Shown: positions 5,939 through 41,028 of the stretch, piece after piece
Numbering within the stretch: position 1 is the first letter of the stretch
How the letters are laid out: each line of letters begins with the position of its first letter
From: an uncultured Bacillales bacterium
GTDB lineage: Bacteria > Bacillota_I > Bacilli_A > RF39 > UBA660
DNA: 52,651 nt
Direction of reading: 5' to 3'
NCBI GenBank assembly: GCA_947168625.1
Contig: CAMVMQ010000002.1
Coordinates: forward strand, 1-52,651
Notes under the pieces: generated by a model
Seen by the model: only the letters and a program-made list of their open reading frames with translations
The model's database searches: none
What the model was told of the DNA's origin: nothing
Position numbers and translations under genes: made by a program

Positions 5939-6038
5939 ATTGTTAAAATACTTGTTTATAAAAAAATAGTACTGGACAAATTAATTTTTTGCGATATAAT
6001 AAAGTTAAATGAAATCTTGAGGTAGGGAGGTTTTGCTC

Positions 6039-7400
6039 ATGAATACAGAAGTTCTTTGGAATAATTTTCTTGATAAAATAAAAGAACGCATATCCCCTTT
6101 ATCTTATGATACATGGTTTAAAGATACTAAGCTACATAGTATTGATAATGGATTAGCTACTATAATAGTTCCTATGGGACTTCATAAAAAGCATTTGGAA
6201 GAAAACTATTTAGACGACATTGAGGAAGTATTTAATGCAATTACGGGTACTAATTTTTCTTTCACTTTCAAATTAGAAAATGAACTGGATAATAAAGAAG
6301 CGTGTAATATTGATAATTTGTCAACAGAAACTGTTGGTGTACCTTTTCAAAGTAGTGTTTTAGCAAATCTGAATGATAAATATACTTTTGATAATTTTAT
6401 GGTTGGTGACTCTAATAGATTTGCCTTTACTGCTGCTAGAGCGGTAGCAGAAAAACCTGGTAAAGCATATAATCCACTATTTTTATATGGTAATAGTGGT
6501 CTTGGTAAAACACATTTAATGCATGCCATTGGAAATTATATAATAGAAAATTCCAATAAAAAAGTTTTATATGTATCCAGTGAACAATTTGTTAATGATT
6601 ATATTTATGCAGTTAGAAATAATGAGAAAAATAATTTTGAAAAAATTGATTTATTTAAGAGTAAATATCGTAATGTTGATGTTTTGATTATTGATGATAT
6701 TCAATTTTTAGGTTCTGCTACTAAAGGTCAAGAAGAATTTTTTCATACATTTAATGAATTACATGACTCTAATAAACAAATAATTATAGCTTCAGACAGA
6801 TCTGTTGATGATTTAAAGATGCTAGAAGATAGACTTAGAACCCGATTTAATTGGGGACTTACGGCCAATATAACTCCTCCAGATTTCGAGCTGAGGGTTA
6901 GTATTATTAAAAAGAAAATATCACATCAGGAATCTGCTAAAGATATTCCTATTGAAGTTATTGAATACATCGCTAATATTAATGATTCTGATGTAAGACA
7001 ACTTGAGGGAGCTATTACCAGGGTATTTGCTTATGCACTTATGATGAATAAGGGAATTGTTACTCTAGATATTGCTGTGGAAGCTTTAAAAGATCGAGTG
7101 AGTGAGAAGAGTGTCTTTAAGAATGATGTTCATCGAATACAAAGAATTGTTTGTGAATATTTTAAAATTGACATAGAAGAATTAAAGGGAAAAAAGAAAA
7201 GTAAAGATGTCAACTATCCTAGACAAATTGCTATATATTTGTGTAGAGAATTAACAAATGAATCTTTTCCTAAAATGGGGACCTATTTTGGTGGGAGAGA
7301 TCATTCTACAATTATTAGTGCTTACCAAAAAATTAAGAAAGATTTAAAGACTAATAATCAACTACAAACAGTTATCTCAGAATTAAAAAATAGAATATAG
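6039..7400 (+). CDS. dnaA: chromosomal replication initiator protein DnaA
   Basis: Walker A GNSGLGKTHL, IIDDIQFL box, C-terminal DNA-binding region (YPRQIAIYLCRELT, FGGRDHSTIISAYQKI). SD GGTAGGGAGG sits about 8 nt before ATG 6039. The ORF track TTG 6033 is less likely. Confidence 0.97.
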   Translation: MNTEVLWNNFLDKIKERISPLSYDTWFKDTKLHSIDNGLATIIVPMGLHKKHLEENYLDDIEEVFNAITGTNFSFTFKLENELDNKEACNIDNLSTETVGVPFQSSVLANLNDKYTFDNFMVGDSNRFAFTAARAVAEKPGKAYNPLFLYGNSGLGKTHLMHAIGNYIIENSNKKVLYVSSEQFVNDYIYAVRNNEKNNFEKIDLFKSKYRNVDVLIIDDIQFLGSATKGQEEFFHTFNELHDSNKQIIIASDRSVDDLKMLEDRLRTRFNWGLTANITPPDFELRVSIIKKKISHQESAKDIPIEVIEYIANINDSDVRQLEGAITRVFAYALMMNKGIVTLDIAVEALKDRVSEKSVFKNDVHRIQRIVCEYFKIDIEELKGKKKSKDVNYPRQIAIYLCRELTNESFPKMGTYFGGRDHSTIISAYQKIKKDLKTNNQLQTVISELKNRI

Positions 7401-8705: not shown

Positions 8706-8747
8706 TTATTTTGTGGTTTAATAGCTGTCAAGAAAGGGGGGAGGTAA

Positions 8748-9209
8748 ATGCAAGATTATATTTTGAATACAGATGTGTTATGTTTTACTCAGGATGTTGA
8801 TAATGATAAAAATATTTTGGTTATTGAAAAGAAAAATAAAAATGTTATTAAAATGGATTGCTTTAAATTTTTAAAAAGAAGTTGTAGTTACTATGGTCAT
8901 TCATATAAAATGCAGAGACAATTTGTTATCGACATTTTCAATTATTATATAAAAACACCTATTATAGTGTCTGAGTATGATATGATTATATTCTTTCCTA
9001 CAGCTAGTCCTAAATCTAAGGAATGTATATGGATTTCTTATAATAATGTCGAGAGATATGTAAAAGAAGATAATTATACTAAAATTTATTTTAAAGGTGG
9101 AAAAATTCTAAATATTAGTACTTCATATAGTACTATCGATCATCAGATTACAAAATGTATTAGGATTGAGAAATTTTTAAATTCAATTAGAGTAAAAAAT
9201 TATAGCTAA
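8748..9209 (+). CDS. ComK-family (competence transcription factor-like) protein, C-terminally short
   Basis: It aligns by eye to the B. subtilis ComK core: RSCSYYGHSY vs RSCRFFGSSY, KTPIIVS vs KPPIMVD, IIFFPTASPKSKECIWIS vs IFLFPTLSSTRPQCGWIS, and a SY..Q motif. Strong SD GGGGGGAGG upstream. Confidence 0.65.
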   Translation: MQDYILNTDVLCFTQDVDNDKNILVIEKKNKNVIKMDCFKFLKRSCSYYGHSYKMQRQFVIDIFNYYIKTPIIVSEYDMIIFFPTASPKSKECIWISYNNVERYVKEDNYTKIYFKGGKILNISTSYSTIDHQITKCIRIEKFLNSIRVKNYS

Positions 9210-9222
9210 TTACTTATTTTAT

Positions 9223-9267
9223 AAGGAAAAAAGATTAAAAAAGTGAGTCTTTTTCCTTTTCTTTTTT
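9223..9267 (+). terminator. rho-independent terminator after the ComK-like gene
   Basis: AAGGAAAAAAGA...TCTTTTTCCTT hairpin followed by T-rich tail. Confidence 0.55.
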
Positions 9268-9349
9268 ATGAATATATGATATAATTTATATGTATAGGAG
9301 TACATAAACTATAAAAAGGTGATGATATGGGCAAGAAAATGATGTTTAA

Positions 9350-10453
9350 ATGCAAATCAGAAATATTAAATTAAAAAATTATCGAAATTATGATAATATT
9401 GAAGTCGATTTTGGCAACAAATTAAATATTATTATAGGCAATAATGCTCAAGGAAAAACTAATTTATTAGAGTCAATTTATGTACTTGCTGTTACAAAGT
9501 CTTTTTTGTCTGTAAAAGAAAAAGATTTAGTTAATTTTAATGAAAAATTTGCTAGAATTAGTGGAATTATTGCTAATAATACTAGGAGCGATTGTAAGCT
9601 TGATATTATTTTTAGTGATAAGGGGAAAATGGTTAAGGTTAATGATAAAGAAGTAAAAAAATTAAGCAAATATATCTCTATTGTTAATGTTATTATATTT
9701 AGCGCAGAAAATATATGGATATTTAAAGATAGTCCTTCGACTAGAAGGAGATATTTTAATATGCAAATTAGTCAGATAAGTAATGTTTATTTAAAATATT
9801 TAAGTGATTATAATGATTTACTTAGACAGAGAAATGAATTTTTGAAATTAATTAATGTGAATAAGCAGAGTGATAATTATTATTTGGATATTTTGGATGA
9901 AAAATATTCTTCTTTTTCTGTTGAGGTTTTTAAATATCGAAAAAAGTATATTAACGATATTAATGAATATTTAGATGAAATGTATAAAAAGATAACTGGT
10001 GACTCTGGTTTAAAGCTTATTTATCACACAGATGTTATTTCAGATAAGGATATTTTTTTAGAAAAGATTAAAAAAAATTATAGTAAGGAAATATTACATA
10101 AAATGACTTTAGAAGGACCAAACAGAGATGATTTCTATTTTATACTTAATGGAAAAAACCTATCATTGTTTGGAAGTCAAGGTCAGATTAGAAGTGCTGT
10201 TTTAGCTCTTAAATTATCTGAAGTAAAATTATTTAATAAGATTACTGGGGATACCCCAATTCTTCTTTTAGATGATATTTTTAGTGAGTTAGATATTGAT
10301 AAGAAAAATAATCTTCTTAGCTCAATTAGAGATGATGTTCAAACAATAGTTACGACTACTGACATAGATAATATTGCAGAAAATATTCGAAAAAATGCTA
10401 ATATATATAAAATTGATAATGGAAGAATTGTTTTACAAAATTTAAATAATTAA
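9350..10453 (+). CDS. recF: DNA replication and repair protein RecF
   Basis: MQIRNIKLKNYRNY N-terminus, Walker A GNNAQGKTNLLE, Walker B LLLDDIFSELD. An in-frame TAA at 9347 prevents upstream extension. Confidence 0.93.
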   Translation: MQIRNIKLKNYRNYDNIEVDFGNKLNIIIGNNAQGKTNLLESIYVLAVTKSFLSVKEKDLVNFNEKFARISGIIANNTRSDCKLDIIFSDKGKMVKVNDKEVKKLSKYISIVNVIIFSAENIWIFKDSPSTRRRYFNMQISQISNVYLKYLSDYNDLLRQRNEFLKLINVNKQSDNYYLDILDEKYSSFSVEVFKYRKKYINDINEYLDEMYKKITGDSGLKLIYHTDVISDKDIFLEKIKKNYSKEILHKMTLEGPNRDDFYFILNGKNLSLFGSQGQIRSAVLALKLSEVKLFNKITGDTPILLLDDIFSELDIDKKNNLLSSIRDDVQTIVTTTDIDNIAENIRKNANIYKIDNGRIVLQNLNN

Positions 10454-10467
10454 GGATGGTGATTTAG

Positions 10468-12393
10468 ATGAATAATAATAATCAAGAACATTATGATGCA
10501 TCAGATATTCAGGTTTTAGAAGGACTTGAAGCTGTAAGAAAAAGACCAGGTATGTATATTGGTACTACTGATATTAAAGGATTACATCATTTGGTATGGG
10601 AGATAGTTGATAATGCTATTGATGAATCTTTAGCTGGATTTTGTAATAATATTGAGGTTATTATAAACAAGGATAATTCAATTACAGTAAAGGATGATGG
10701 TAGGGGAATTCCGACTGAAATACATCCTAAGACAGGTTTATCAACGGTCGAAACTGTTTATACTGTACTTCATGCTGGTGGTAAATTCGGTGGTGGTGGA
10801 TATAAGGTATCTGGTGGTCTTCATGGTGTTGGTGCATCTGTAGTTAATGCCTTAAGTAGTTGGGTTGAGGTTAAAGTTTACAAAAATGGTGTTGTCAATT
10901 ATATAAGATTTGAAAATGGTGGCCATACTGTTGAGCCACTTCATGTAATTGATAAATGTGATATAAATCGTACTGGAACGGTTGTTACGTTTAAACCAGA
11001 CCCTGAAATATTTGATACGGATATATATGATTATAATACTTTAAAGGTTAGAATAAGAGAACTCGCTTTTCTAAATAGGGGTTTATCAATAACAATTAGA
11101 GATGATCGTGACGAAGAAGATACAACGGGTGAAACTTTCTTATATGAGGGTGGAATAAGCGAATATGTGAGATTTATTAATAAAGAAAAAACTCCAATTC
11201 ATGAAGATATAATTCACTTTGAAGGTGAAGAAGATGGTGTTTATCTTGAGGTTGCTATGCAATATAATACGAGCTATAATGATAATATATATTCATTTGT
11301 TAATAATATTAATACGCATGATGGTGGAACTCATGAAGAAGGGGTTAGAAGAGCTTTAACTAGAACTATTAATAATTATGCAAAGAAGTTTAATATGTTA
11401 AAAGATAAGGATGATTCTTTAACTGGTGATGATGTTAAGGAAGGTCTTACAATGATCATTTCTTGTAAACATCCAAACCCTCAATTTGAAGGGCAAACTA
11501 AGGGTAGACTTGGTAATTCAGAAGTTAGAAAACTTGCAGATAGTATTTTTTCTCAGGGATTTGAACGTTTTTTGATGGAGAATCCGGAAGAAGCTAAACT
11601 TATAATTGGTAAAGCGATGCTTGCTTGCAGGGCAAGAAATGCTGCGAGAAAGGCAAGGGAAATAACCAGAAAAAGTGAGATGGCCACTAGTAATTTCTTT
11701 GGTAAATTATCTGATTGTAAAAGTAAAGATCCTAAAGTATCTGAGATATTTATTGTAGAGGGAGATAGTGCTGGTGGCTCTGCTAAAAAAGGTAGAGATT
11801 CTATGACTCAAGCTATACTTCCATTAAGAGGAAAAATACTTAATGTAGAAAAAGCAAGACTTGATAGAGCTCTTTCAAATGAGGAAATTAGGACTATTAT
11901 TACTGCATTTGGAACAGGTATTGGCGAGGAATTTGATTTATCTAAATTAAGATATGATAAAATTATAATTATGACTGATGCAGATGTTGATGGATCACAT
12001 ATTAGGGTATTATTGTTAACTTTATTCTATCGTTTCTTTAAACCAATAGTAGAAGCTGGTCATGTCTATGCAGCTCAACCACCATTATTCTGTATAAAAC
12101 ATGGTAAGACTATTAAGTATGTTTTAAATGAACAGGCAAGAGATGAATATTTATCTACTCTTAATGCCAATGTTAAATATGATATCTTTCGTATGAAAGG
12201 TTTAGGAGAAATGGATGCTGAGGAACTTAACGAGACAACTATGGATATTAATAAGAGAGTTTTAAGAAAAATAACTGTTGATGATTGTGTAGCTGCCGAT
12301 GCTATTTTTGAAAAGCTTATGGGGGATGAAGTAGAACCTAGAAGAAAGTTTATTGAAGAAAATGCTGTTTATGCGCAGAATCTAGATGTATAG
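10468..12393 (+). CDS. gyrB: DNA gyrase subunit B
   Basis: GHKL motifs ([31 protein letters not shown]), [45 protein letters not shown]. Confidence 0.98.
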
Positions 12394-14950: not shown

Positions 14951-14966
14951 TATTTCCCGGGAAATA
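14951..14966. promoter_or_regulatory. Noc-binding-site (NBS)-type palindrome TATTTCCCGGGAAATA
   Basis: Exact match to the published B. subtilis NBS palindrome (core ATTTCCCGGGAAAT). CCCGGG is very rare in this AT-rich DNA. Confidence 0.7.
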
Positions 14967-15131
14967 TTTTTGTTACACAAACATTTGTTTGTGTAATTCT
15001 TTCTTTGCAATTAATTGCTTTATTTTGTATTTTATTGTATATTTTTATTGATACAACATTACTTTATGGAATCAAGTCAGGGATGGAAATCAGCAGCTTT
15101 AACATATAAGTTTTGTGTGTATCTTTTTTTA

Positions 15132-15147
15132 TGTTCCACGTGGAACA
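15132..15147. promoter_or_regulatory. parS-type site 1 (TGTTCCACGTGGAACA)
   Basis: Perfect 16-bp palindrome (18 bp with flanking A/T). 15/16 match to parS consensus TGTTNCACGTGAAACA. Confidence 0.8.
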
Positions 15148-15234
15148 TCGTTTGATTTCAATATGGTTATTATTTATTAAAATATTTTGTTGTTGATAGA
15201 GTTAGTTTCAATTTATAATTTTTTATTTAATTAA

Positions 15235-15250
15235 TGTTCCACGTGGAACA
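15235..15250. promoter_or_regulatory. parS-type site 2 (TGTTCCACGTGGAACA)
   Basis: Identical 18-mer ATGTTCCACGTGGAACAT. Confidence 0.8.
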
Positions 15251-15389
15251 TATACCGTAATTTAATTTATTCAATGTTTTTTTCTTGTTGATAGGTTATA
15301 AATTTACAATTTTATTATTAAAACAAATTAGATGTAAATCATACTATATATAAAGTAAATATTGGAATTAGGTTTTTATCTATTACTCA

Positions 15390-15405
15390 TGTTTCACGTG
15401 GAACA
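15390..15405. promoter_or_regulatory. parS-type site 3 (TGTTTCACGTGGAACA)
   Basis: One half-site is TGTTTCAC, as in the canonical parS. It is embedded in the 34-bp near-palindrome TATTACTCATGTTTCACGTGGAACATGAGTAATA (15381..15414). Confidence 0.8.
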
Positions 15406-15490
15406 TGAGTAATACTTTTATTTATCATTATTTTAATTAGTTAAATTTTTAATTTGTTGATAACTTTATATTTATATATTTATTTTATTA

Positions 15491-15506
15491 TGTTCCACGT
15501 GGAACG
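15491..15506. promoter_or_regulatory. parS-type site 4 (TGTTCCACGTGGAACG)
   Basis: One outer mismatch. It is embedded in the 28-bp near-palindrome TTATTATGTTCCACGTGGAACGTAATAA. Confidence 0.7.
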
Positions 15507-15633
15507 TAATAAAAAATTATGTATTTAATTGTATTTTAATAGTTGTGTTGTAATGTTGAATAATTAATTATTAGTATAGTGAAGCTTTTTTAAATTATAT
15601 TGATAGATTTTTTTTATTATGTTACTATTTTCA

Positions 15634-15649
15634 TGTTCCACGTGGAACA
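15634..15649. promoter_or_regulatory. parS-type site 5 (TGTTCCACGTGGAACA)
   Basis: Centre of the perfect 34-bp palindrome CTATTTTCATGTTCCACGTGGAACATGAAAATAG (15625..15658), ending at the tadA SD. Position verified against the ORF-track frame. Confidence 0.8.
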
Positions 15650-31986: not shown

Positions 31987-32033
31987 TGATACAATTAATA
32001 TGCTTATAAAATATTAATGAGGTGATTATTTGT

Positions 32034-32801
32034 ATGAAAGATAAGCTCGTTAGGATTATTACTGTTTCTTCATTAATTATGGTTGTTGGTTTATTTTCTG
32101 CATTTACGTTATATAGCAATAATGATAGTAATCAAATTGTATTTGTAGCAGAAAATAATAATTTTAAGAAGATGGATAATAATACTCTTCTTAGATTTGA
32201 TGATTCTTTTAAGTTAAAAGAAAGTATTGAAAATAGTGATAGTAAAACTATTGAAAATTTAGTAGATATTAAAGAAGAAGTTAAAGTTGAAGAAAAAATT
32301 TCTGATACACCAGTAGAAGTGAAAACTAAAAAAGTAATTTCAAAAACTAGTGATGATCAAAATGGGAATGTTAATATTACTTCAGATAGTGATAACACTG
32401 ATCAGAGTAATAATAATAATAATTCTATTTCTTTAAAAGAAGAGAGAGCAGTTATTCAGACGGTAACTGGTACTCTAACAGGATATGGTGCAGATTGTTA
32501 TGGATGTTCTGGGATTACTAGTAGTGGTTTTAATTTAAAAAAATCGATTTATTATAATGATAGTGAATTTGGTTCGGTAAGAGTATTAGCTGCTGATCCT
32601 TCATTTCCTTTTTATTCGATTATTCGAATTAGTAATGTTCCTGGTATGGATAGTTTTCTAGGTATTGTTCTTGACAGAGGTGGTAATGTTGGATATGGTA
32701 GAGGAACTTTATTTGATTTAGCTTTTAGTAGTGAAAGAGATCCTAATTTAATTCCTTTAACTACAAATGTAACTTTTGAACTTTTAAGAAGTGGTAGATA
32801 A
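32034..32801 (+). CDS. 3D-domain (RlpA-like double-psi beta-barrel) cell-wall protein, YabE-like
   Basis: N-terminal anchor, low-complexity linker, then C-terminal GTLTGYGADCYGCSGITSSG...VLAADPSFPFYSIIRI...VLDRGG. Synteny after tatD. Confidence 0.65.
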   Translation: MKDKLVRIITVSSLIMVVGLFSAFTLYSNNDSNQIVFVAENNNFKKMDNNTLLRFDDSFKLKESIENSDSKTIENLVDIKEEVKVEEKISDTPVEVKTKKVISKTSDDQNGNVNITSDSDNTDQSNNNNNSISLKEERAVIQTVTGTLTGYGADCYGCSGITSSGFNLKKSIYYNDSEFGSVRVLAADPSFPFYSIIRISNVPGMDSFLGIVLDRGGNVGYGRGTLFDLAFSSERDPNLIPLTTNVTFELLRSGR

Positions 32802-34599: not shown

Positions 34600-35598
34600 T
34601 TGCCAGTGTTTAACAAGGATATTGGAATTGATTTGGGAACTGCAAATGTACTTATATATATTAAGGGACAGGGTATTGTACTTAATGAGCCATCGGTGGT
34701 AGCTATTGATGCTGATACTAAAAGGCCTTTAGCTGTAGGAACTGAGGCTCACGAAATGCTTGGAAGAACACCTGGTAAAGTTAAGGCTATTAAACCTATG
34801 AAAGATGGTGTAATAGCAGATTTTGAAACAACAGAGATTATGCTTAATTATTTTATTAAGAAAGTTAATGGTAAAAGTTTTTTCTCTAGACCTAGAATTT
34901 TGATTTGTTGTCCTAGTAATATTACTCAAGTTGAAAAAAATGCTATTAAAGAGGCAGCTGAAAGAACTGGAGCTAAGAAAGTATATTTAGAAGAAGAGCC
35001 CAAAGTTGCTTCGATTGGAGCTGGTATGGATATTTCTAAACCTAGTGGTAATATGGTTATTGATATTGGTGGTGGAACTACTGATATTGCTATTTTATCT
35101 TTAGGTGGTATTGTTAACAGTTCTTCAATTAGAATTGCTGGTAATGCTTTTGATAGTGATATTGTTAAATATATTAAGGATAAATATAAGTTACTTGTTG
35201 GAGAGAGAACTGCTGAGGATATTAAGATATCTATTGGTACTGTTTTTCCTGGTTCAAGAAATGAGAAGATGGAAGTTAGAGGAAGAGACTTGGTTACTGG
35301 ACTTCCACATACAATTACGCTTATTAGTGATGAAGTTGAAGAGGCATTAAGAGAGAGCGTTTATACAATAATTCATGCTGTTAAAGGAATATTAGAACAA
35401 ACTCCTCCTGAATTATCCGCTGATATTATTGATAAAGGCATTGTTCTTACTGGTGGTGGAGCTATGGTTGATGGTTTTTCTCAAATACTTAGTCAAGAAC
35501 TTAAGGTACCTGTTTTTATTGCGGAATCTCCACTTACTTGCGTGGCTGAAGGTACAGGAATTCTTTTAGATAATTTATATATGTTAGAAAGGCAATAA
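34600..35598 (+). CDS. mreB: rod-shape determining actin homologue MreB/Mbl
   Basis: DIGIDLGTANVLIY, DIGGGTTDIAILSLGG, LTGGGA. Start is TTG 34600 or, more likely given GGAAGGTGA, GTG 34606. Confidence 0.93.
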   Translation: MPVFNKDIGIDLGTANVLIYIKGQGIVLNEPSVVAIDADTKRPLAVGTEAHEMLGRTPGKVKAIKPMKDGVIADFETTEIMLNYFIKKVNGKSFFSRPRILICCPSNITQVEKNAIKEAAERTGAKKVYLEEEPKVASIGAGMDISKPSGNMVIDIGGGTTDIAILSLGGIVNSSSIRIAGNAFDSDIVKYIKDKYKLLVGERTAEDIKISIGTVFPGSRNEKMEVRGRDLVTGLPHTITLISDEVEEALRESVYTIIHAVKGILEQTPPELSADIIDKGIVLTGGGAMVDGFSQILSQELKVPVFIAESPLTCVAEGTGILLDNLYMLERQ

Positions 35599-35615
35599 TT
35601 GATATTGCTTTTTTT
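35592..35615 (+). terminator. terminator after mreB/mbl
   Basis: GCAATA-ATTGA-TATTGC hairpin plus T7. Confidence 0.55.
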
Positions 35616-35620
35616 GTTTA

Positions 35621-35647
35621 TAAAAAAAAAGATTTTATGCAAATCTT
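35621..35647 (-). terminator. terminator of the minus-strand 500-aa gene
   Basis: On the minus strand, AAGATTT-GCATA-AAATCTT is followed by T9. It overlaps the stop codon. Confidence 0.55.
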
Positions 35648-37137
35648 CTTCCTCCTTTGTGGGCATTTTCAGTTAGTTCTTCAAAAAAATCTTTTTCAAA
35701 TACCTCATCACTTATAAGTAAGTCTTGATTCCTTTTACACATGTTAGGATATGTGTCTTTTGGATTATCTTCTTTTTTTATGAATGCTCCTATTATGGCA
35801 TATTCATTGTCTTTTATGTTTTTATATATTATTCTTATTTGATCATCTCTTATTTCAGAATAACCACGTACTTTGTTTGATTCGGTCAATTCTTTTGACT
35901 GTGATGGCATTAGTTTTCCTTTTTTAAATAATACTAAAAGTTCTCTTAATCCGTTATATGCATCTTTTGGAAATGATTGAGATTTTACATCATCTGATAA
36001 GTATGGCCTACCCGATGGCTTTACACAGTAAAATAATTTATTAACATCTTGATCATCTTGTATTCTTTTATATTCTTCATAATATTTTGCTAATTCTGTA
36101 TCCATAACTTTTCTGATGGTAAGATAATTTTTAATTGTTTCTTTATACATTTCTACTAATGTAATACGGTCTTCTTTATTGCTGTAATTATTATAATTCT
36201 GTAGTTCTTCTTGTTCATCAAGTAAATCGTTTTGGTATATTTTTAGAAGAGTAATATAGAAATATTTTATTTCACTAATTGTGTAATTATTGTCAAATGA
36301 TAGATCTCCGTTATATTTTGGAAGCATATCAATTGTTATCTCATCTATTCCTTGCTCTCTAATTATTTGTATTAGTTCTTTTAATTCTTTTTTTCTTTCA
36401 TTATCAATCCAGGATATATCATTGAATTTTTCGTATCCCATTTCAACAATATTTATTATGCGATCTTTTTTATTTGAATCAATTTTTGAATTATTATAAT
36501 ATACAGTGTTGTTATGATTATGTAGGTGTTCAAATAAAATAATTTTTTCTTTATCAGAAAGATGTTTTCTATCAAATAGTTTTTCAAGCAGTGAAAAATG
36601 ATAGGCAGTTACTAGTGTTTCTTCTCTCTTTTTAAACTTACAATTTCCTTTGTATTTTTTCCATATATAATAGTTATGCTTTAAATTGTCTGCTATTTCC
36701 TTATATACGTTAATTTCTTTTTCTGTCACTTCTGGCATTAATGAAAGCAATTTTGCATTTTCTTTTATTAGTTCATTCTCAAATAGTTTTTTTATTTTTT
36801 CTATATATTTTTTTTGTTTTTCATATTCTTTTTCGTCATATTTTTTTGGATTTATATTATAATTTTGGCAAATCGTATTTGCTTTTAATACTTTGTCAGA
36901 TATTGTTTGTGCTGCTTTTTCATTTGAACCTAAAAACATTTTAATTACCATATCAACTAATATAAAGTTGTCATCAATCCTTGTGTAATCGTTTGTTTCC
37001 AATAATGAAATAGTGTCTTTAATTAAATTAATATCTGATTTTTTTAGTTTTTGTTCTTGCTGTTTACTGTAGTAATTTTCAATCTCTATTTCAAGTAGAT
37101 TAATAATTGCCTCTAAATTTAATTCTTTTAGTTCCAT
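35635..37137 (-). CDS. hypothetical 500-aa protein: long Lys/Glu-rich helical N-region plus RelE/ParE(Gp49/HigB)-like C-terminal module
   Basis: The C-terminal ~110 aa show a toxin-fold pattern (FYCVKPSGRPYLSDDV..., KELTESNKVRGYSEIRDDQIRIIYKNIKDNEYAIIGAFIKKED) resembling the L.G..ELR.GDYRIIY....I.I..F.KK signature. AGGAAG sits 6 nt before ATG 37137. No domain recognised in residues 1-370. Confidence 0.6.
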   Translation of the reverse strand: MELKELNLEAIINLLEIEIENYYSKQQEQKLKKSDINLIKDTISLLETNDYTRIDDNFILVDMVIKMFLGSNEKAAQTISDKVLKANTICQNYNINPKKYDEKEYEKQKKYIEKIKKLFENELIKENAKLLSLMPEVTEKEINVYKEIADNLKHNYYIWKKYKGNCKFKKREETLVTAYHFSLLEKLFDRKHLSDKEKIILFEHLHNHNNTVYYNNSKIDSNKKDRIINIVEMGYEKFNDISWIDNERKKELKELIQIIREQGIDEITIDMLPKYNGDLSFDNNYTISEIKYFYITLLKIYQNDLLDEQEELQNYNNYSNKEDRITLVEMYKETIKNYLTIRKVMDTELAKYYEEYKRIQDDQDVNKLFYCVKPSGRPYLSDDVKSQSFPKDAYNGLRELLVLFKKGKLMPSQSKELTESNKVRGYSEIRDDQIRIIYKNIKDNEYAIIGAFIKKEDNPKDTYPNMCKRNQDLLISDEVFEKDFFEELTENAHKGGRRFA

Positions 37138-37157
37138 TAACATCTTCCTTTCTATTT

Positions 37158-37171
37158 ATATTGTACAATAT
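37158..37171. promoter_or_regulatory. 14-bp perfect palindrome ATATTGTACAATAT in the 5' region of the 500-aa gene
   Basis: Lies about 20 nt upstream of the start codon, overlapping -10-like TACAAT/TATAAAT on the minus strand. Possible operator. Confidence 0.3.
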
Positions 37172-37276
37172 TTTTATTTGATGCGCAATGATGTTTTTTT
37201 TGTTGTGTAAAGTTAGCGTTAAATTATATACTTTTTGTTTTTAGTATGATAAAATGATTTTGGAAGGATGATTGTT

Positions 37277-37711
37277 ATGAAAATTGGTATTGCAAGTGAT
37301 CATAGAGGATATAAAACGAAAGAGATGTTGAAGGAAAGCCTTATTGGTTATGATATTATTGATTATGGTACTAATAATGAAGAACCTGCCGATTTCCCTG
37401 TATATGCTAAAAAGTTAGGGGAAGCTATATTAAATAATGATATTGATTATGGTATTGCTATTTGTGGTACGGGTATTGGTATGAGTATTGCTTTAAATAA
37501 GATAAAGGGAATCTATTGTGCTAAAGTATCTAATGCAAGTGAAGCTAGACTTGCTAGGTCGCATAATAATGCTAATACTATTGCATTTAGTGAGGAATTG
37601 GATGATGATTTAAAGTTGGAAATTGTTAATAGTTTTTTAACTACTCCTTTTTCTAATGTTAGTAAGTATGTAAAGAGAAATGATATGATTAGGAAAATGG
37701 AAAATGATTAA
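37277..37711 (+). CDS. rpiB: ribose-5-phosphate isomerase B
   Basis: MKIGIASDHRGY and CGTGIGMSIALNK motifs, about 144 aa. Confidence 0.92.
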   Translation: MKIGIASDHRGYKTKEMLKESLIGYDIIDYGTNNEEPADFPVYAKKLGEAILNNDIDYGIAICGTGIGMSIALNKIKGIYCAKVSNASEARLARSHNNANTIAFSEELDDDLKLEIVNSFLTTPFSNVSKYVKRNDMIRKMEND

Positions 37712-37969: not shown

Positions 37970-38953
37970 ATGTTTAAAATTGGTAATATTGAAATAGAGA
38001 ATAATGTTGTTTTGGCTCCGATGGCCGGTGTTTGTAATAGCGCTTTTAGGAGAATTATTAAGGAAATGGGATGTTCCTTGGTTTATGCTGAAATGGTAAG
38101 TGATAAAGGGCTTATTTATGACAGTAAAAAGACTAAGAACATGTTATATTTTGAAGAGTGTGAAAGGCCTATTGCGCAACAGATATTTGGGAGTGATAAG
38201 GAAACTTTCGTTAAGGCTGCTAAAATGGTTGAAGAAATAATGCATCCGGATATTATTGATATTAATATGGGATGTCCTGTTCCTAAGGTTGCCATAAAAG
38301 CACAGGCTGGAGCTGCTCTCCTTAAGAATCCTGATAAGATTTATGATATTGTTTCTTCGGTAGTTAAGGCTGTTAGTGTTCCCGTTACTGTTAAAATTAG
38401 AAGTGGCTGGGATAATAATAGTGTTAATGCGGTTGAGGTAGCAAAGGTATGTGAGAAAGCGGGGGCTAGTGCTATTTGTGTGCATGGAAGAACAAGAAGT
38501 CAGGGATATAGTGGATTTGTTGATTTAAATATTATTAAAAAGGTTAAAGAAAATGTTAACATTCCTGTTATTGGTAATGGTGACGTTACTGATATTCAAA
38601 GTGCTGAAAAGATGCTTTCCTATACTGGATGTGATGCTATTATGATTGGAAGAGGTGTTCTTGGTAATCCCTGGCTTATGAGGGAAATAATTACTTATCT
38701 AAATACAGGCGCTTTAATTTCTAAACCTAGTTATAGTGAGAGAATAGAAATGTGTTTTCATCATATGGATTATTTACTTAAAATTAAGAATGAGAGAGTA
38801 GCTGTATTAGAGATGAGAAGTCATATTTCTTGGTATTTGAAGGGCCTTCCTGGAGCACAAAGAATAAAAAATGAAATATTTAAAGTAAGAGAAGTTGAAG
38901 ATATTAAAAAAATTCTTTTTAACTATTTAAAAGAATTAGAAAATAAGGTATAA
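37970..38953 (+). CDS. dusB: tRNA-dihydrouridine synthase
   Basis: LAPMAGVCNSAFR, DINMGCPV, VHGRTRSQ. Precedes lysS as in Bacillus. Confidence 0.92.
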   Translation: MFKIGNIEIENNVVLAPMAGVCNSAFRRIIKEMGCSLVYAEMVSDKGLIYDSKKTKNMLYFEECERPIAQQIFGSDKETFVKAAKMVEEIMHPDIIDINMGCPVPKVAIKAQAGAALLKNPDKIYDIVSSVVKAVSVPVTVKIRSGWDNNSVNAVEVAKVCEKAGASAICVHGRTRSQGYSGFVDLNIIKKVKENVNIPVIGNGDVTDIQSAEKMLSYTGCDAIMIGRGVLGNPWLMREIITYLNTGALISKPSYSERIEMCFHHMDYLLKIKNERVAVLEMRSHISWYLKGLPGAQRIKNEIFKVREVEDIKKILFNYLKELENKV

Positions 38954-38974
38954 TATTAAGTGTTTGGTGATAAT

Positions 38975-39559
38975 ATGAAAAAAATATTTATTAAAAGAAT
39001 TGGTGCATATTTATTTGATTTTATTATTGTTGCTATTATTATTTCAATTATTACGATGAAGTTTACTAATAGTAATAAGGTTATAGATGAATTGAATAAT
39101 TTGATTGTTGGTGTTAATAATGAGAATATTACTATGAAAGAATTTTCTGATAAAATGACTATTCTTAATTATGATTATCAAAAAAGTACGGTTCCTTTGA
39201 AAATTGTTAATGTACTTGTTAACTTTGGCTATTTTGTTATTTTTGCTACTTTAAACAAAGGACAAACACTTGGCAAGAAAGTGTTTAAAATTAGAGTAGT
39301 TAATAAAGATGGAAAAAGTCCTAGTATATGGAATGTATTAATAAGAAGTTTGTTTTTGTATGGTATATTACTTGGTATAATAAATATTGTTAGTGTTAAT
39401 ATTTGTAATGCTAAAACTTTTAGTCATGTAAATACAATTTTTGATTATGTTAGTTATATTTTTATTATTATTTGTTTCTTTATGGTATCTATGAGAAAAG
39501 ATAGTAAAGGACTTCATGATTTGATGGCTGGTACTAATGTGATAGGAGAGGAGAAATAG
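38975..39559 (+). CDS. RDD family membrane protein
   Basis: KRIGAYLFDFIIV, GQTLGKKVFKIRVVNKDG and LHDLMAGTNV pattern, with 3-4 TM segments. Confidence 0.75.
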   Translation: MKKIFIKRIGAYLFDFIIVAIIISIITMKFTNSNKVIDELNNLIVGVNNENITMKEFSDKMTILNYDYQKSTVPLKIVNVLVNFGYFVIFATLNKGQTLGKKVFKIRVVNKDGKSPSIWNVLIRSLFLYGILLGIINIVSVNICNAKTFSHVNTIFDYVSYIFIIICFFMVSMRKDSKGLHDLMAGTNVIGEEK

Positions 39560-39561
39560 GC

Positions 39562-41028
39562 ATGGAAAGAACAGAACAAGAAATAGTTAGAATTGAAAAA
39601 ATTGATAAGATTAAGGATTATTGTAATCCTTATCCTGAAAAGTATGTTAAGACGCATTCTTTAAAGGAAGCAAGGTTACTTGAAGATGGCATTGATAATG
39701 TTAGATTAGCGGGTAGAATTGTCTTTATGAGGAAGATGGGTAAACTTAGCTTTCTTCGTATTAGGGATATTGAAGGTGATATGCAACTCGAAATTAAGAT
39801 TGATGAGGTTGGAGAAGAATCTTATTCTTTCTTTAAATCTTTAATTGATTTGGGTGATTTTATTGGAGCTGAAGGTGAAATTTTCACTACCCAGACTGGT
39901 GAAAAGACTTTAAGAGTACATACTTTTGAGTTCCTTGGTAAGGCTTTAAGACCTTTACCTGAAAAATTTCATGGATTAATGGATATAGAAACTAAGTATC
40001 GTGAAAGATATGTTGATTTAATTACAAATGAGGAATCAAGAAAGGTATTTTTAGGTAGAAGTAAATTATATGCTTATATACATAAGTTTTTAGGAGAGAA
40101 TGGATTTTTAGAAGTAGAAACTCCTATTCTTCAAAATGCTGTATGTGGCGCTTCTGCTAGACCTTTTTATACTCACCATAATGCTCTTGATATTGAGTGT
40201 AATTTAAGAATTGCACCTGAAACTTATTTGAAACAATGTGTAGCTGGTGGCTTTGATAGAGTATACGAAGTTGCTAAGTGTTTTAGGAATGAAGGGATGG
40301 ATCCTCAGCACTTACAAGAATTTACACAGGTAGAATGGTATGCTTCTTACTGGAATTTTGAAGATAATATTAACTTTTATCAGAAGTTTATTAGAGGTCT
40401 TTTGATGGAACTTGTTGGTACTACTAAGATCGAGTATCAGGGTACAGAAATTGATTTTGGTAAAGAAAATTGGAATAAGATTAATTATGTTGAAAGAATG
40501 AGAGAAGTGTTTGGTTTTGATTTTCTTGATTTTGAAGAACCTCAAATTCTTAAAGACAAGATAGTTGAAAAAGGTTTATTTACTTATACTGATTTGGAAG
40601 AATATCATTCTTTATCTCAAATTATTGATTTTTGTTATAAAAAATGTGTTAGGGCAAATATTATTGAGCCTACTATTATTTATAATTATCCTGCTGTTTT
40701 AATGCCACTTGCTAGAAGAAATGATAATGATTCTCGTATTATTGATGTTTTTCAAGTTGTTGTTTTTGGTACCGAATTATGTAAAGCATATTCAGAGCTT
40801 GTTAATCCATTTCAACAGAGAAAGACTTTTGAGCAACAATTAGAAGCTAAAGCTCAAGGTGATGAAGAAACAATGGATATTGATGAAAGCTTTTTATCCG
40901 CTATGGAACAAGGAATGCCACCAATATCTGGACTTGGCTTTGGAATAGATAGACTTCTTATGATTATTTATAATCAACCTTCTATTAGAGATGTTGTGTT
41001 ATTTCCTCAGATGAAAGATAAGAAGTAA
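39562..41028 (+). CDS. lysS: lysine--tRNA ligase (class II)
   Basis: OB-fold N-domain (RLAGRIVFMRKMGKLSFLRIRD), motif 2 FRNEG, motif 3 GLGFGIDRLLM. Confidence 0.96.
   Translation: MERTEQEIVRIEKIDKIKDYCNPYPEKYVKTHSLKEARLLEDGIDNVRLAGRIVFMRKMGKLSFLRIRDIEGDMQLEIKIDEVGEESYSFFKSLIDLGDFIGAEGEIFTTQTGEKTLRVHTFEFLGKALRPLPEKFHGLMDIETKYRERYVDLITNEESRKVFLGRSKLYAYIHKFLGENGFLEVETPILQNAVCGASARPFYTHHNALDIECNLRIAPETYLKQCVAGGFDRVYEVAKCFRNEGMDPQHLQEFTQVEWYASYWNFEDNINFYQKFIRGLLMELVGTTKIEYQGTEIDFGKENWNKINYVERMREVFGFDFLDFEEPQILKDKIVEKGLFTYTDLEEYHSLSQIIDFCYKKCVRANIIEPTIIYNYPAVLMPLARRNDNDSRIIDVFQVVVFGTELCKAYSELVNPFQQRKTFEQQLEAKAQGDEETMDIDESFLSAMEQGMPPISGLGFGIDRLLMIIYNQPSIRDVVLFPQMKDKK

Follow-up and report, generated by a model that had tools for sequence, protein, structure and literature searches.

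The HigB toxins of the Gp49-like group (Pfam PF05973), which include the proteins of Streptococcus pneumoniae (Protein Data Bank (PDB) entries 6AF3 and 6AF4), Mycobacterium tuberculosis (Rv1955), and Vibrio cholerae (HigB2), are single-domain proteins of ~90 to 125 amino acids encoded beside the gene for HigA, an antitoxin with a helix-turn-helix (HTH) domain. In a 52,651-nucleotide stretch of DNA from an uncultured Bacillales bacterium (contig CAMVMQ010000002.1 of assembly GCA_947168625.1, positions 1 to 52,651; hereafter, the window), the RelE fold with long C-terminal helix that is common to these toxins, together with their catalytic constellation of Glu, Arg/Lys, Arg, Phe, and Lys, instead makes up the C-terminal quarter of a 500-amino-acid protein encoded on the minus strand between mreB and rpiB. 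Among the features of a type II (higBA) module, the locus lacks the adjacent antitoxin gene, the DNA-binding antitoxin, and the operator palindrome. The explanation that we consider best, to which we assign a probability of roughly 0.45, is that the protein is a single-chain, self-regulated HigB-type translation-arrest toxin whose N-terminal domain would replace the antitoxin as a cis-acting regulator.

Several described proteins approach this architecture without matching it. A survey of multidomain RelE/ParE proteins lists gp49–HTH fusions and PIN-like–YoeB proteins and left out multidomain proteins that have no identifiable antitoxin (Gerdes 2025, PMC11980606). The arrangement described here is absent from the multidomain proteins cataloged in that survey, and we found no description of it elsewhere, as had been proposed in an earlier annotation of this DNA (hereafter, the original prediction). 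The gp49–HTH fusions likewise join a toxin domain to a possible regulator or neutralizer within one gene. However, in those proteins the toxin comes first and its partner is a recognizable HTH antitoxin, whereas here the partner is N-terminal, spans 360 residues, is entirely α-helical, and matches nothing. Two-domain proteins with a C-terminal BECR effector of the Gp49-like or YoeB-like type are also represented by NsnC of the Menshen system and PtuZ of ptuXYZ, but their N-terminal domain is a Rossmann-like inactive PIN domain rather than an all-helical one, and their genes always belong to an operon of three, the other two of which encode a ParB-DUF262 protein and an ABC/PtuA-like ATPase, whereas the neighbors in the window are mreB and rpiB. 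The C-terminal part of NsnC is its BECR effector domain (PMC12065111). A weak PADLOC match of our protein to NsnC is limited to profile positions 243 to 285 of 294, and because these cover that effector domain only, the match adds nothing beyond the assignment of a RelE fold. Membership in the Menshen/NsnC group was therefore rejected, since only the effector domain is common and the operon partners are missing. CapRel SJ46 combines a toxSAS toxin and a C-terminal antitoxin/sensor in one chain, and its toxin fold differs from the one found here.

The window begins near the replication origin (dnaA at 6033–7400), has a G+C content of 27%, and carries a plus-strand block comprising dnaA, dnaN, recF, gyrB, gyrA, the signal recognition particle (SRP) RNA gene, mfd, metG, tatD, spoIID, an M23 peptidase gene, and mreB/mbl, which continues with rpiB, dus, a gene for an RDD protein, lysS, a gene for a DcuC carrier, and clpC. 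Within this codirectional block, from dnaN (7520) to clpC (45372), no minus-strand gene other than the one under study is credible, which bears out its description as a lone gene between mreB and rpiB. The minus-strand ORF (open reading frame) at 35635–37143 is intact and is given as 502 amino acids in a mechanical ORF list. Its first ATG (37143) abuts the ribosome-binding site AAGGAAG, and translation probably begins at the second ATG (37137), which AAGGAAG precedes by 6 nt. Because the start at 37137 equals that of the called protein and the start Met of all orthologs, the product is taken to be 500 amino acids, and the coding sequence of 500 codons plus a TAA stop extends over 35635–37137 (minus strand). 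No gene on the same strand follows it. The flanking gaps are only 36 nt to mreB and 124 to 130 nt to rpiB and are therefore too short for a separate antitoxin gene, in agreement with the claim that no small antitoxin gene is present on either side.

The C-terminal ~140 residues (residues 361–500; 35638–36057, minus strand) constitute a RelE/ParE-superfamily (BECR) domain of the Gp49/HigB type, as judged by a profile match in an ortholog, by Foldseek, and by hhalign. An AlphaFold2 (AF2) model built with 121 sequences, which has a whole-protein predicted local distance difference test (pLDDT) score of 93.1 and a predicted template-modeling (pTM) score of 0.83, places β-strands at residues 367–372, 414–416, 426–431, 434–442, and 445–453, α-helices at 379–386 and 391–405, and a long C-terminal helix at 477–491, with pLDDT values of 85 to 98 across residues 367–491. 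This topology of a short strand and helix, a further helix, a four-stranded antiparallel sheet, and a C-terminal extension fits the RelE-like group, and the order of strands and helices is the one described in the original prediction. Foldseek searches with a shallower AF2 model had likewise given meaningful matches only to S. pneumoniae HigB, HP0894, RelE, and ParE. With the 121-sequence model, the meaningful matches are to HigB, RelE1, HP0894, and RelE only, with template-modeling (TM) scores of 0.61 to 0.66 for S. pneumoniae HigB (6af3/6af4) and 0.73 for M. tuberculosis RelE1 (9g12_B). Over both models, TM scores to HigB, RelE1, HP0894, and RelE span 0.61 to 0.73, and the check by structure prediction and Foldseek that had been suggested thus supports the RelE/ParE-like assignment.

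Profile comparisons agree with this assignment in part. The window protein itself does not match the Pfam Gp49 model. The ortholog P0002 scores 27.7 bits on the Pfam Gp49 model over the equivalent residues, above the cut-off of 23.9, and the orthologs P0003 and P0004 fall below that cut-off with 18.3 and 14.8 bits. Gp49 is matched by 10 of 34 isolated C-terminal domains at E ≤ 0.01 and by 9 of 100 full-length members at E ≤ 0.001. Judged from these scores, the domain is a divergent subfamily located at the edge of the Gp49 model. Alignment of the C-terminal domain profile with M. tuberculosis HigB(TAC) by hhalign yielded E = 0.0027, and the numbering of the HigB sequence used is consistent with all residues that a published study names (PMC9098466).

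The same alignment pairs K415, E428, R430, R435, F452, and K454 of the window protein with K58, E66, R68, R77, F93, and K95 of HigB(TAC), respectively, and mutations at these HigB(TAC) residues abolish toxicity (PMC7984235 and PMC9098466 are the sources for HigB residue roles). In S. pneumoniae HigB, mutation of E66, R68, R73, F90, or K92 lowers RNase activity or toxicity (PMC7984235, PMC9098466), and the spacing E-x-R-x4-R-x16-F-x-K of these residues is the same in the protein described here. Conservation was counted over 121 full-length relatives, 86 to 99% of which keep the HigB catalytic positions, except for the Phe (64%). Specifically, position 415 is Lys or Arg in 104 relatives and position 430 in 119, and E428, R435, F452, and K454 are retained in 108, 119, 77, and 120, respectively. 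Six further residues are kept to a similar extent, namely D383 (120), D432 (114), Q433 (113), K455 (114), R469 (119), and R497 in the C-terminal tail (119). Two motifs hold most of these positions. The motif E428-I-R430-D-D432-Q433-I-R435 spans strands β2 and β3 (35833–35856, minus strand) and is equivalent to HigB E66, R68, and R73/R77, and F452-I-K454-K455 in strand β4 (35773–35784, minus strand) is equivalent to F90/F93 and K92/K95. Beyond the helix at 477–491, a basic tail of the form (R/H)-K-G-x-R reads H493-K-G-G-R497 and is followed by R-F-A (tail at 35647–35661, minus strand). Position 493 is Arg or His in 113 of the relatives, and the tail forms the extreme C terminus in most members but lies a few residues inward in the clade of the window. 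By analogy, this tail may correspond to the tRNA-contacting helix α3 of HigB(TAC). Overall, the conservation pattern is what a working active site would be expected to leave in an alignment, and the domain would, if the likeness to HigB extends to function, be an active ribosome-dependent mRNase.

The remainder of the protein, residues 1–360 (36058–37137, minus strand), appears as an acidic, all-α domain that is specific to the family. In the 121-sequence model it is confidently predicted to consist of helices only, and it has no match in Pfam, NCBIfam, PHROGs, or PDB sequences and no fold match in the PDB or in BFVD, a collection of viral predicted structures. The description of a helical N-terminal region without a known motif is thereby upheld. 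Library scans of the protein revealed no HTH, ribbon-helix-helix, or other DNA-binding domain and no LXG or other trafficking domain, and a signal peptide is not evident in the sequence. Conserved positions in the N-terminal domain are mostly hydrophobic, with the addition of E203, N209 (90%), G234, E236, Y292, Y318, Y338, and R342. The median isoelectric point (pI) of this domain is 5.1, with 117 of the 121 members below pI 7, and that of the mildly basic C-terminal domain is 8.8. The pTM score implies that the two parts pack as one body, such that the toxin domain is modeled with a second domain packed on it that matches no antitoxin family. Across the 121 members, conservation is highest in the C-terminal domain, and close orthologs are 42 to 48% identical in it versus 37 to 44% in the N-terminal domain. 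We also observed an 18-residue Lys-rich insertion, IWKKYKGNCKFKKREETL (36616–36669, residues ~157–174), which is absent in the orthologs and where alone the model drops to low confidence (pLDDT 53 to 64).

A word-index protein search returned three orthologs with 38 to 45% identity. Note that such searches saturate on this low-complexity protein, yielding only four to seven proteins per search, and that the family was exposed by an exhaustive profile search, which, with clustering at 50% identity, recovered 396 clusters at E ≤ 1e-3 and 204 at E ≤ 1e-10. Lengths of 420 to 505 amino acids, typically ~480, and alignment over the full length characterize most members. Ten representatives were checked, all of which come from metagenomes, with one also present in NCBI, and none of the 10 is named. 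The family is large, unnamed, and nonessential, occurs in uncultured gut Bacilli, and has no partner antitoxin gene. Short entries that seem to contain only the C-terminal domain were considered as free-standing toxins and rejected, because they proved to be truncated calls, a decay product (locus L099), a frameshift split (L097), or the result of a scaffold gap (L098). Loci L097 (4959–6427) and L098 (723–2053) carry family members upstream of spoIIIAH-gerE-gerM that are called as split genes. The split reflects one frameshift within a run of A/T in the former and the scaffold gap in the latter, and these cases may be assembly errors or pseudogenes.

A more distant relation is found on an uncultured Bacilli metagenome-assembled genome (CALVJR010000037, locus L005), which at 8717–11567 encodes a 332-amino-acid protein with the same C-terminal domain subtype (hhalign E = 1e-13) and the motif E-V-K-D-x-K-V-R-V ... 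A-F-M-K-K. Its N-terminal ~170 residues are unrelated to the N-terminal domain of the family, and its gene is followed by an overlapping ORF for a 628-residue helical protein, with pyrH and addA adjoining. The 628-residue product was compared with the N-terminal domain as a candidate relative and is not related to it. The pair of L005 genes may be a two-gene variant on the same theme.

The position of the gene is stable among close relatives and varies beyond them. Five close orthologs (L001–L004 and L007) are intact, flanked by mreB and rpiB, and encoded on the strand opposite to these two genes. Elsewhere, the family gene resides between a rluD-type gene and der (L006), after fmt (L008), between recA and ligA (L010), between rlmH and udg (L013), near a gene for a U32 peptidase (L016), and between a recX-side gene and spoIIIAH (L097 and L098). 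No neighbor, small ORF, or antitoxin is conserved across these seven genomic contexts, and no mobility or defense genes are adjacent in the neighborhoods examined. In L002 (1594–4069), two M16-family peptidase genes also occupy the gap, between the family gene and rpiB, and their presence suggests that the mreB–rpiB gap is a recurrent insertion point.

To avoid ascertainment bias, we conducted a metagenome scan anchored on MreB rather than on the family itself, and none of the 80 loci returned holds a family member. At least 17 of them, on related contigs (MreB identity 93 to 97%), present an empty site, in which rpiB begins 65 to 130 nt past the mreB stop codon, and wherever these contigs are long enough the order spoIID-M23-mreB-rpiB-dus-RDD-lysS is intact. 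A lineage-specific segment of ~1.6 kb, comprising the gene and its promoter (35616–37200), is absent at the empty-site loci L017–L024, L026–L031, L051, and L081, and conserved sequence resumes at TTGTGTAAAG (37203–37212). A tree of six flanking proteins splits gene-bearing from empty loci with a bootstrap value of 183/200, and a nine-protein tree agrees. A first tree that included LysS had grouped the window with empty-site genomes, and this result was rejected as an artifact, since Dus and LysS are mosaic or paralogous.

Decay of the gene was seen once. Locus L099 (1352–2353 of a Logan contig from SRR25388754, equivalent to window 35599–37267) holds a damaged copy at the same mreB/rpiB site, and this copy is the closest relative in the C-terminal domain (63% identity). 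A deletion of ~670 nt has removed its promoter and codons 1–245, and the remainder is frameshifted into ORFs of 96 and 156 amino acids, the longer of which retains the entire C-terminal domain, including every catalytic residue. This decay implies that the gene is dispensable and sometimes lost. The family gene is also the most divergent in its neighborhood, with orthologs 38 to 43% identical compared with 44 to 98% for the flanking proteins. Taken together, the gene is accessory and without a link to mobile elements, and its distribution fits one gain or one loss at the mreB–rpiB site followed by vertical inheritance. The original prediction had regarded strict housekeeping-like synteny as evidence against its proposal; the gene is indeed syntenic and vertically inherited within one clade, but the sister clade lacks it.

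Several other observations concern the syntenic block and its boundaries. The Dus and LysS proteins of the window (region 37970–41028, compared with L001, L004, and L020–L024) are closer to those of empty-site genomes (77 to 82% and 78 to 81% identity, respectively) than to those of the gene-bearing locus L001 (64% and 68%), and tatD, spoIID, and the M23 peptidase gene show the opposite relatedness. Either paralogy or recombination downstream of rpiB could explain this mosaic, and a second class of lysS-like genes exists with 42% identity. The second most divergent protein of the block, with 42 to 55% identity to its relatives, is a 259-amino-acid protein encoded between tatD and spoIID (32022–32801) that has no Pfam match. 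Transposon-like insertion of the family gene was considered and rejected, given that there are no convincing terminal repeats and no notable flanking inverted repeats. At the boundary on the rpiB side, the 3′ end of mreB may have been duplicated (35592–35616 versus 37183–37203); the similarity is seen in the window only and may be due to chance. Also, an 18-nt direct repeat with 16 of 18 positions identical flanks the gene, as TGATATTATTGATAAAGG at 35421–35438 in mreB and TGATATTATTGATTATGG at 37351–37368 in rpiB, and is probably a chance occurrence in AT-rich DNA.

Probable expression signals, as read from the sequence, lie at 37144–37188 on the minus strand. The putative promoter consists of a −35-like TTGCGC (37183–37188) and, after a 17-nt spacer, a −10 element TACAAT (37160–37165), and the ribosome-binding site AAGGAAG occupies 37144–37150, all on the minus strand. 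The best match of a promoter scan is elsewhere, at 37252–37223, rather than at the TTGCGC/TACAAT site. A −10-like element of the TGnTAnAAT type recurs ~10 nt upstream of the ribosome-binding site in five orthologous loci, whose own promoter regions span 105 to 220 nt and are poorly conserved except for the −10 box and the ribosome-binding site.

The original prediction had also pointed to a 14-bp perfect palindrome in this region as a mark of autoregulation. The palindrome, ATATTGTACAATAT, is present at 37158–37171 and overlaps the −10 box, but it is not conserved among the five orthologous upstream regions, and the window contains 13 perfect 14-bp palindromes versus 10.1 ± 3.1 expected from Markov-1 simulations at 27% G+C. 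For these reasons its role as an autoregulatory operator was rejected, and we take it to be a coincidental product of the −10 sequence TACAAT. Six of the 13 palindromes cluster within ~700 nt after gyrA (14952–15635), where the SRP RNA gene (15045–15131; Rfam RF00169, 49.4 bits) is also located, and one of them begins just within the next ORF. At the other end of the gene, where convergent terminators had been claimed, a terminator scan found none. One AT-rich hairpin, GCAATA-ATTGA-TATTGC followed by seven T residues (35592–35615), was identified by eye, having been missed because the scan requires three G–C pairs. This weak candidate extends over the stop codon of mreB and may terminate both convergent genes.

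How a self-regulated toxin of this kind might operate can be outlined by analogy with characterized HigB toxins. The HigB/Gp49-type domain would enter the ribosomal A site, cleave mRNA, and thereby arrest translation, and the acidic helical domain of ~360 residues would stand in for a separate antitoxin. Until released by a trigger, for example stress or infection by a phage, the nuclease would be kept inactive or away from the ribosome by the latter domain, which might double as the sensor of that trigger. In evolutionary terms, the gene would be an accessory chromosomal module with its own promoter that was gained or lost once between mreB and rpiB and thereafter inherited vertically while diverging rapidly. 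Such a conflict-related role is favored by the uneven occurrence of the gene, its decay in L099, and its rapid divergence.

A number of results weigh against it. No relatives were found in phage or plasmid records, and IMG/VR contained no matches for the two subgroups queried. All neighborhoods are made up of housekeeping or sporulation genes and are not defense islands. Thus, the patchy, island-like distribution that had been anticipated holds insofar as the gene is accessory, with empty sites and a pseudogene remnant, but not as regards mobile or defense surroundings. Stable vertical retention within the clade is as compatible with a cellular function as with defense. The profile searches that had been suggested were only partly favorable, in that the window protein itself reaches no Pfam threshold and has no match in NCBIfam or PHROGs, although P0002 exceeds the Gp49 cut-off, and PDB sequence searches with the C-terminal domain profile, a single C-terminal domain, and the full-length profile gave chance matches only. 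The acidity of the N-terminal domain is weak evidence for an antitoxin-like role because most cytoplasmic proteins are acidic, and there is no strong arms-race signal on the proposed sensor because this domain diverges only slightly faster than its partner.

The alternative that withstands these data best, though we regard it as unlikely, is that the protein is a domesticated and nontoxic ribosome-associated endonuclease, which would cut A-site mRNA on particular ribosomes that are stalled or engaged with specific transcripts. Its N-terminal domain would dock or target the nuclease, much as the additional domains of release factors or Pelota do, and the protein would be a nonessential, lineage-specific factor acting in mRNA decay or in quality control of translation. 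Such a role would suit a gene whose surroundings are uniformly those of housekeeping or sporulation loci (mreB/rpiB, recA/ligA, rlmH/udg, fmt, der, and recX/spoIIIAH), that is apparently cotranscribed with its neighbors in some lineages (the gap to rlmH in L013 is 12 nt), and that is retained vertically within its clade without any mobile-element link. Strong purifying selection on the catalytic site and a protein modeled as a single rigid body are also consistent with it. However, a factor of this type is disfavored by the absence of the gene from the sister clade and its decay in L099, by a position that varies between lineages, and by a protein that evolves faster than any other in its neighborhood. 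Moreover, we know of no characterized RelE-family member that is a housekeeping factor. The more specific proposal that a RelE-fold nuclease joined to a large ribosome-docking domain serves these small-genome gut Bacilli as a ribosome rescue or mRNA surveillance factor, with no toxin involved, appears to us rather improbable.

We consider it similarly improbable that the protein is a conventional toxin whose antitoxin has gone unrecognized, such as a very short ORF, a small RNA of the antisense or leader type, or a protein whose gene lies elsewhere in the genome. In favor of this reading, the catalytic residues are intact, and the orthologs have promoter regions of their own of 105 to 220 nt. 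Nevertheless, little besides the −10 box and the ribosome-binding site is conserved in those upstream regions, no Rfam family matches the locus, no small ORF recurs across the seven contexts, and the gene is tightly packed between housekeeping genes in several lineages. A tandem-repeat RNA array was not found at the locus either, and a type III-like RNA antitoxin was rejected because the only tandem repeats fall within the coding sequence.

It is very unlikely that the RelE-fold domain is catalytically inactive and acts as an RNA-, ribosome-, or protein-binding module of a structural or regulatory protein. The equivalent of HigB F90/F93 is present in only 64% of members, equivalents of HigB(TAC) N73, Q98, and K99 are not evident in the alignment, and precedents exist in M. 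tuberculosis HigB2 and HigB3, which are nontoxic Gp49-like proteins (PMC9098466). Set against this, K/R430, R435, and K454 are kept at 98 to 99% together with D383, D432, Q433, K455, R469, and R497, a set of residues that indicates an active-site pattern rather than maintenance of the fold alone. Finally, a long helical N terminus followed by a C-terminal BECR RNase resembles the polymorphic toxins of Firmicutes, but a secreted toxin of the LXG/type VII secretion system kind, with a helical N-terminal delivery domain, is highly improbable and was dismissed, because the protein shows neither an LXG or similar trafficking domain nor an evident signal peptide, its gene has no immunity gene following and no secretion gene nearby, and because the toxin domain is conserved and the N terminus variable, which is the reverse of the variable toxin tip of polymorphic toxins.

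What is known here is the RelE/ParE superfamily, and what is new is the architecture in which a helical domain of 360 amino acids precedes a HigB-type domain. RelE and HigB toxins are normally restrained by a separate antitoxin, whereas this family has a HigB active site and no antitoxin gene but carries the undescribed 360-residue domain. Were this domain to act as an internal inhibitor or sensor, the protein would represent a single-gene solution for conditional translation arrest that is built on the most common toxin fold, and the domain itself would be a new regulatory or sensor module worthy of structural work. Should the protein prove harmless and associated with ribosomes, it would be an uncommon example of a toxin fold recruited to serve the cell, and a nuclease that docks on ribosomes would be a bacterial counterpart, constructed on a toxin fold, of the eukaryotic nucleases that act on stalled ribosomes. 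Either way, the findings define a new domain family for Pfam/InterPro and provide an annotation for a recurrent "hypothetical protein" of uncultured gut Bacilli.

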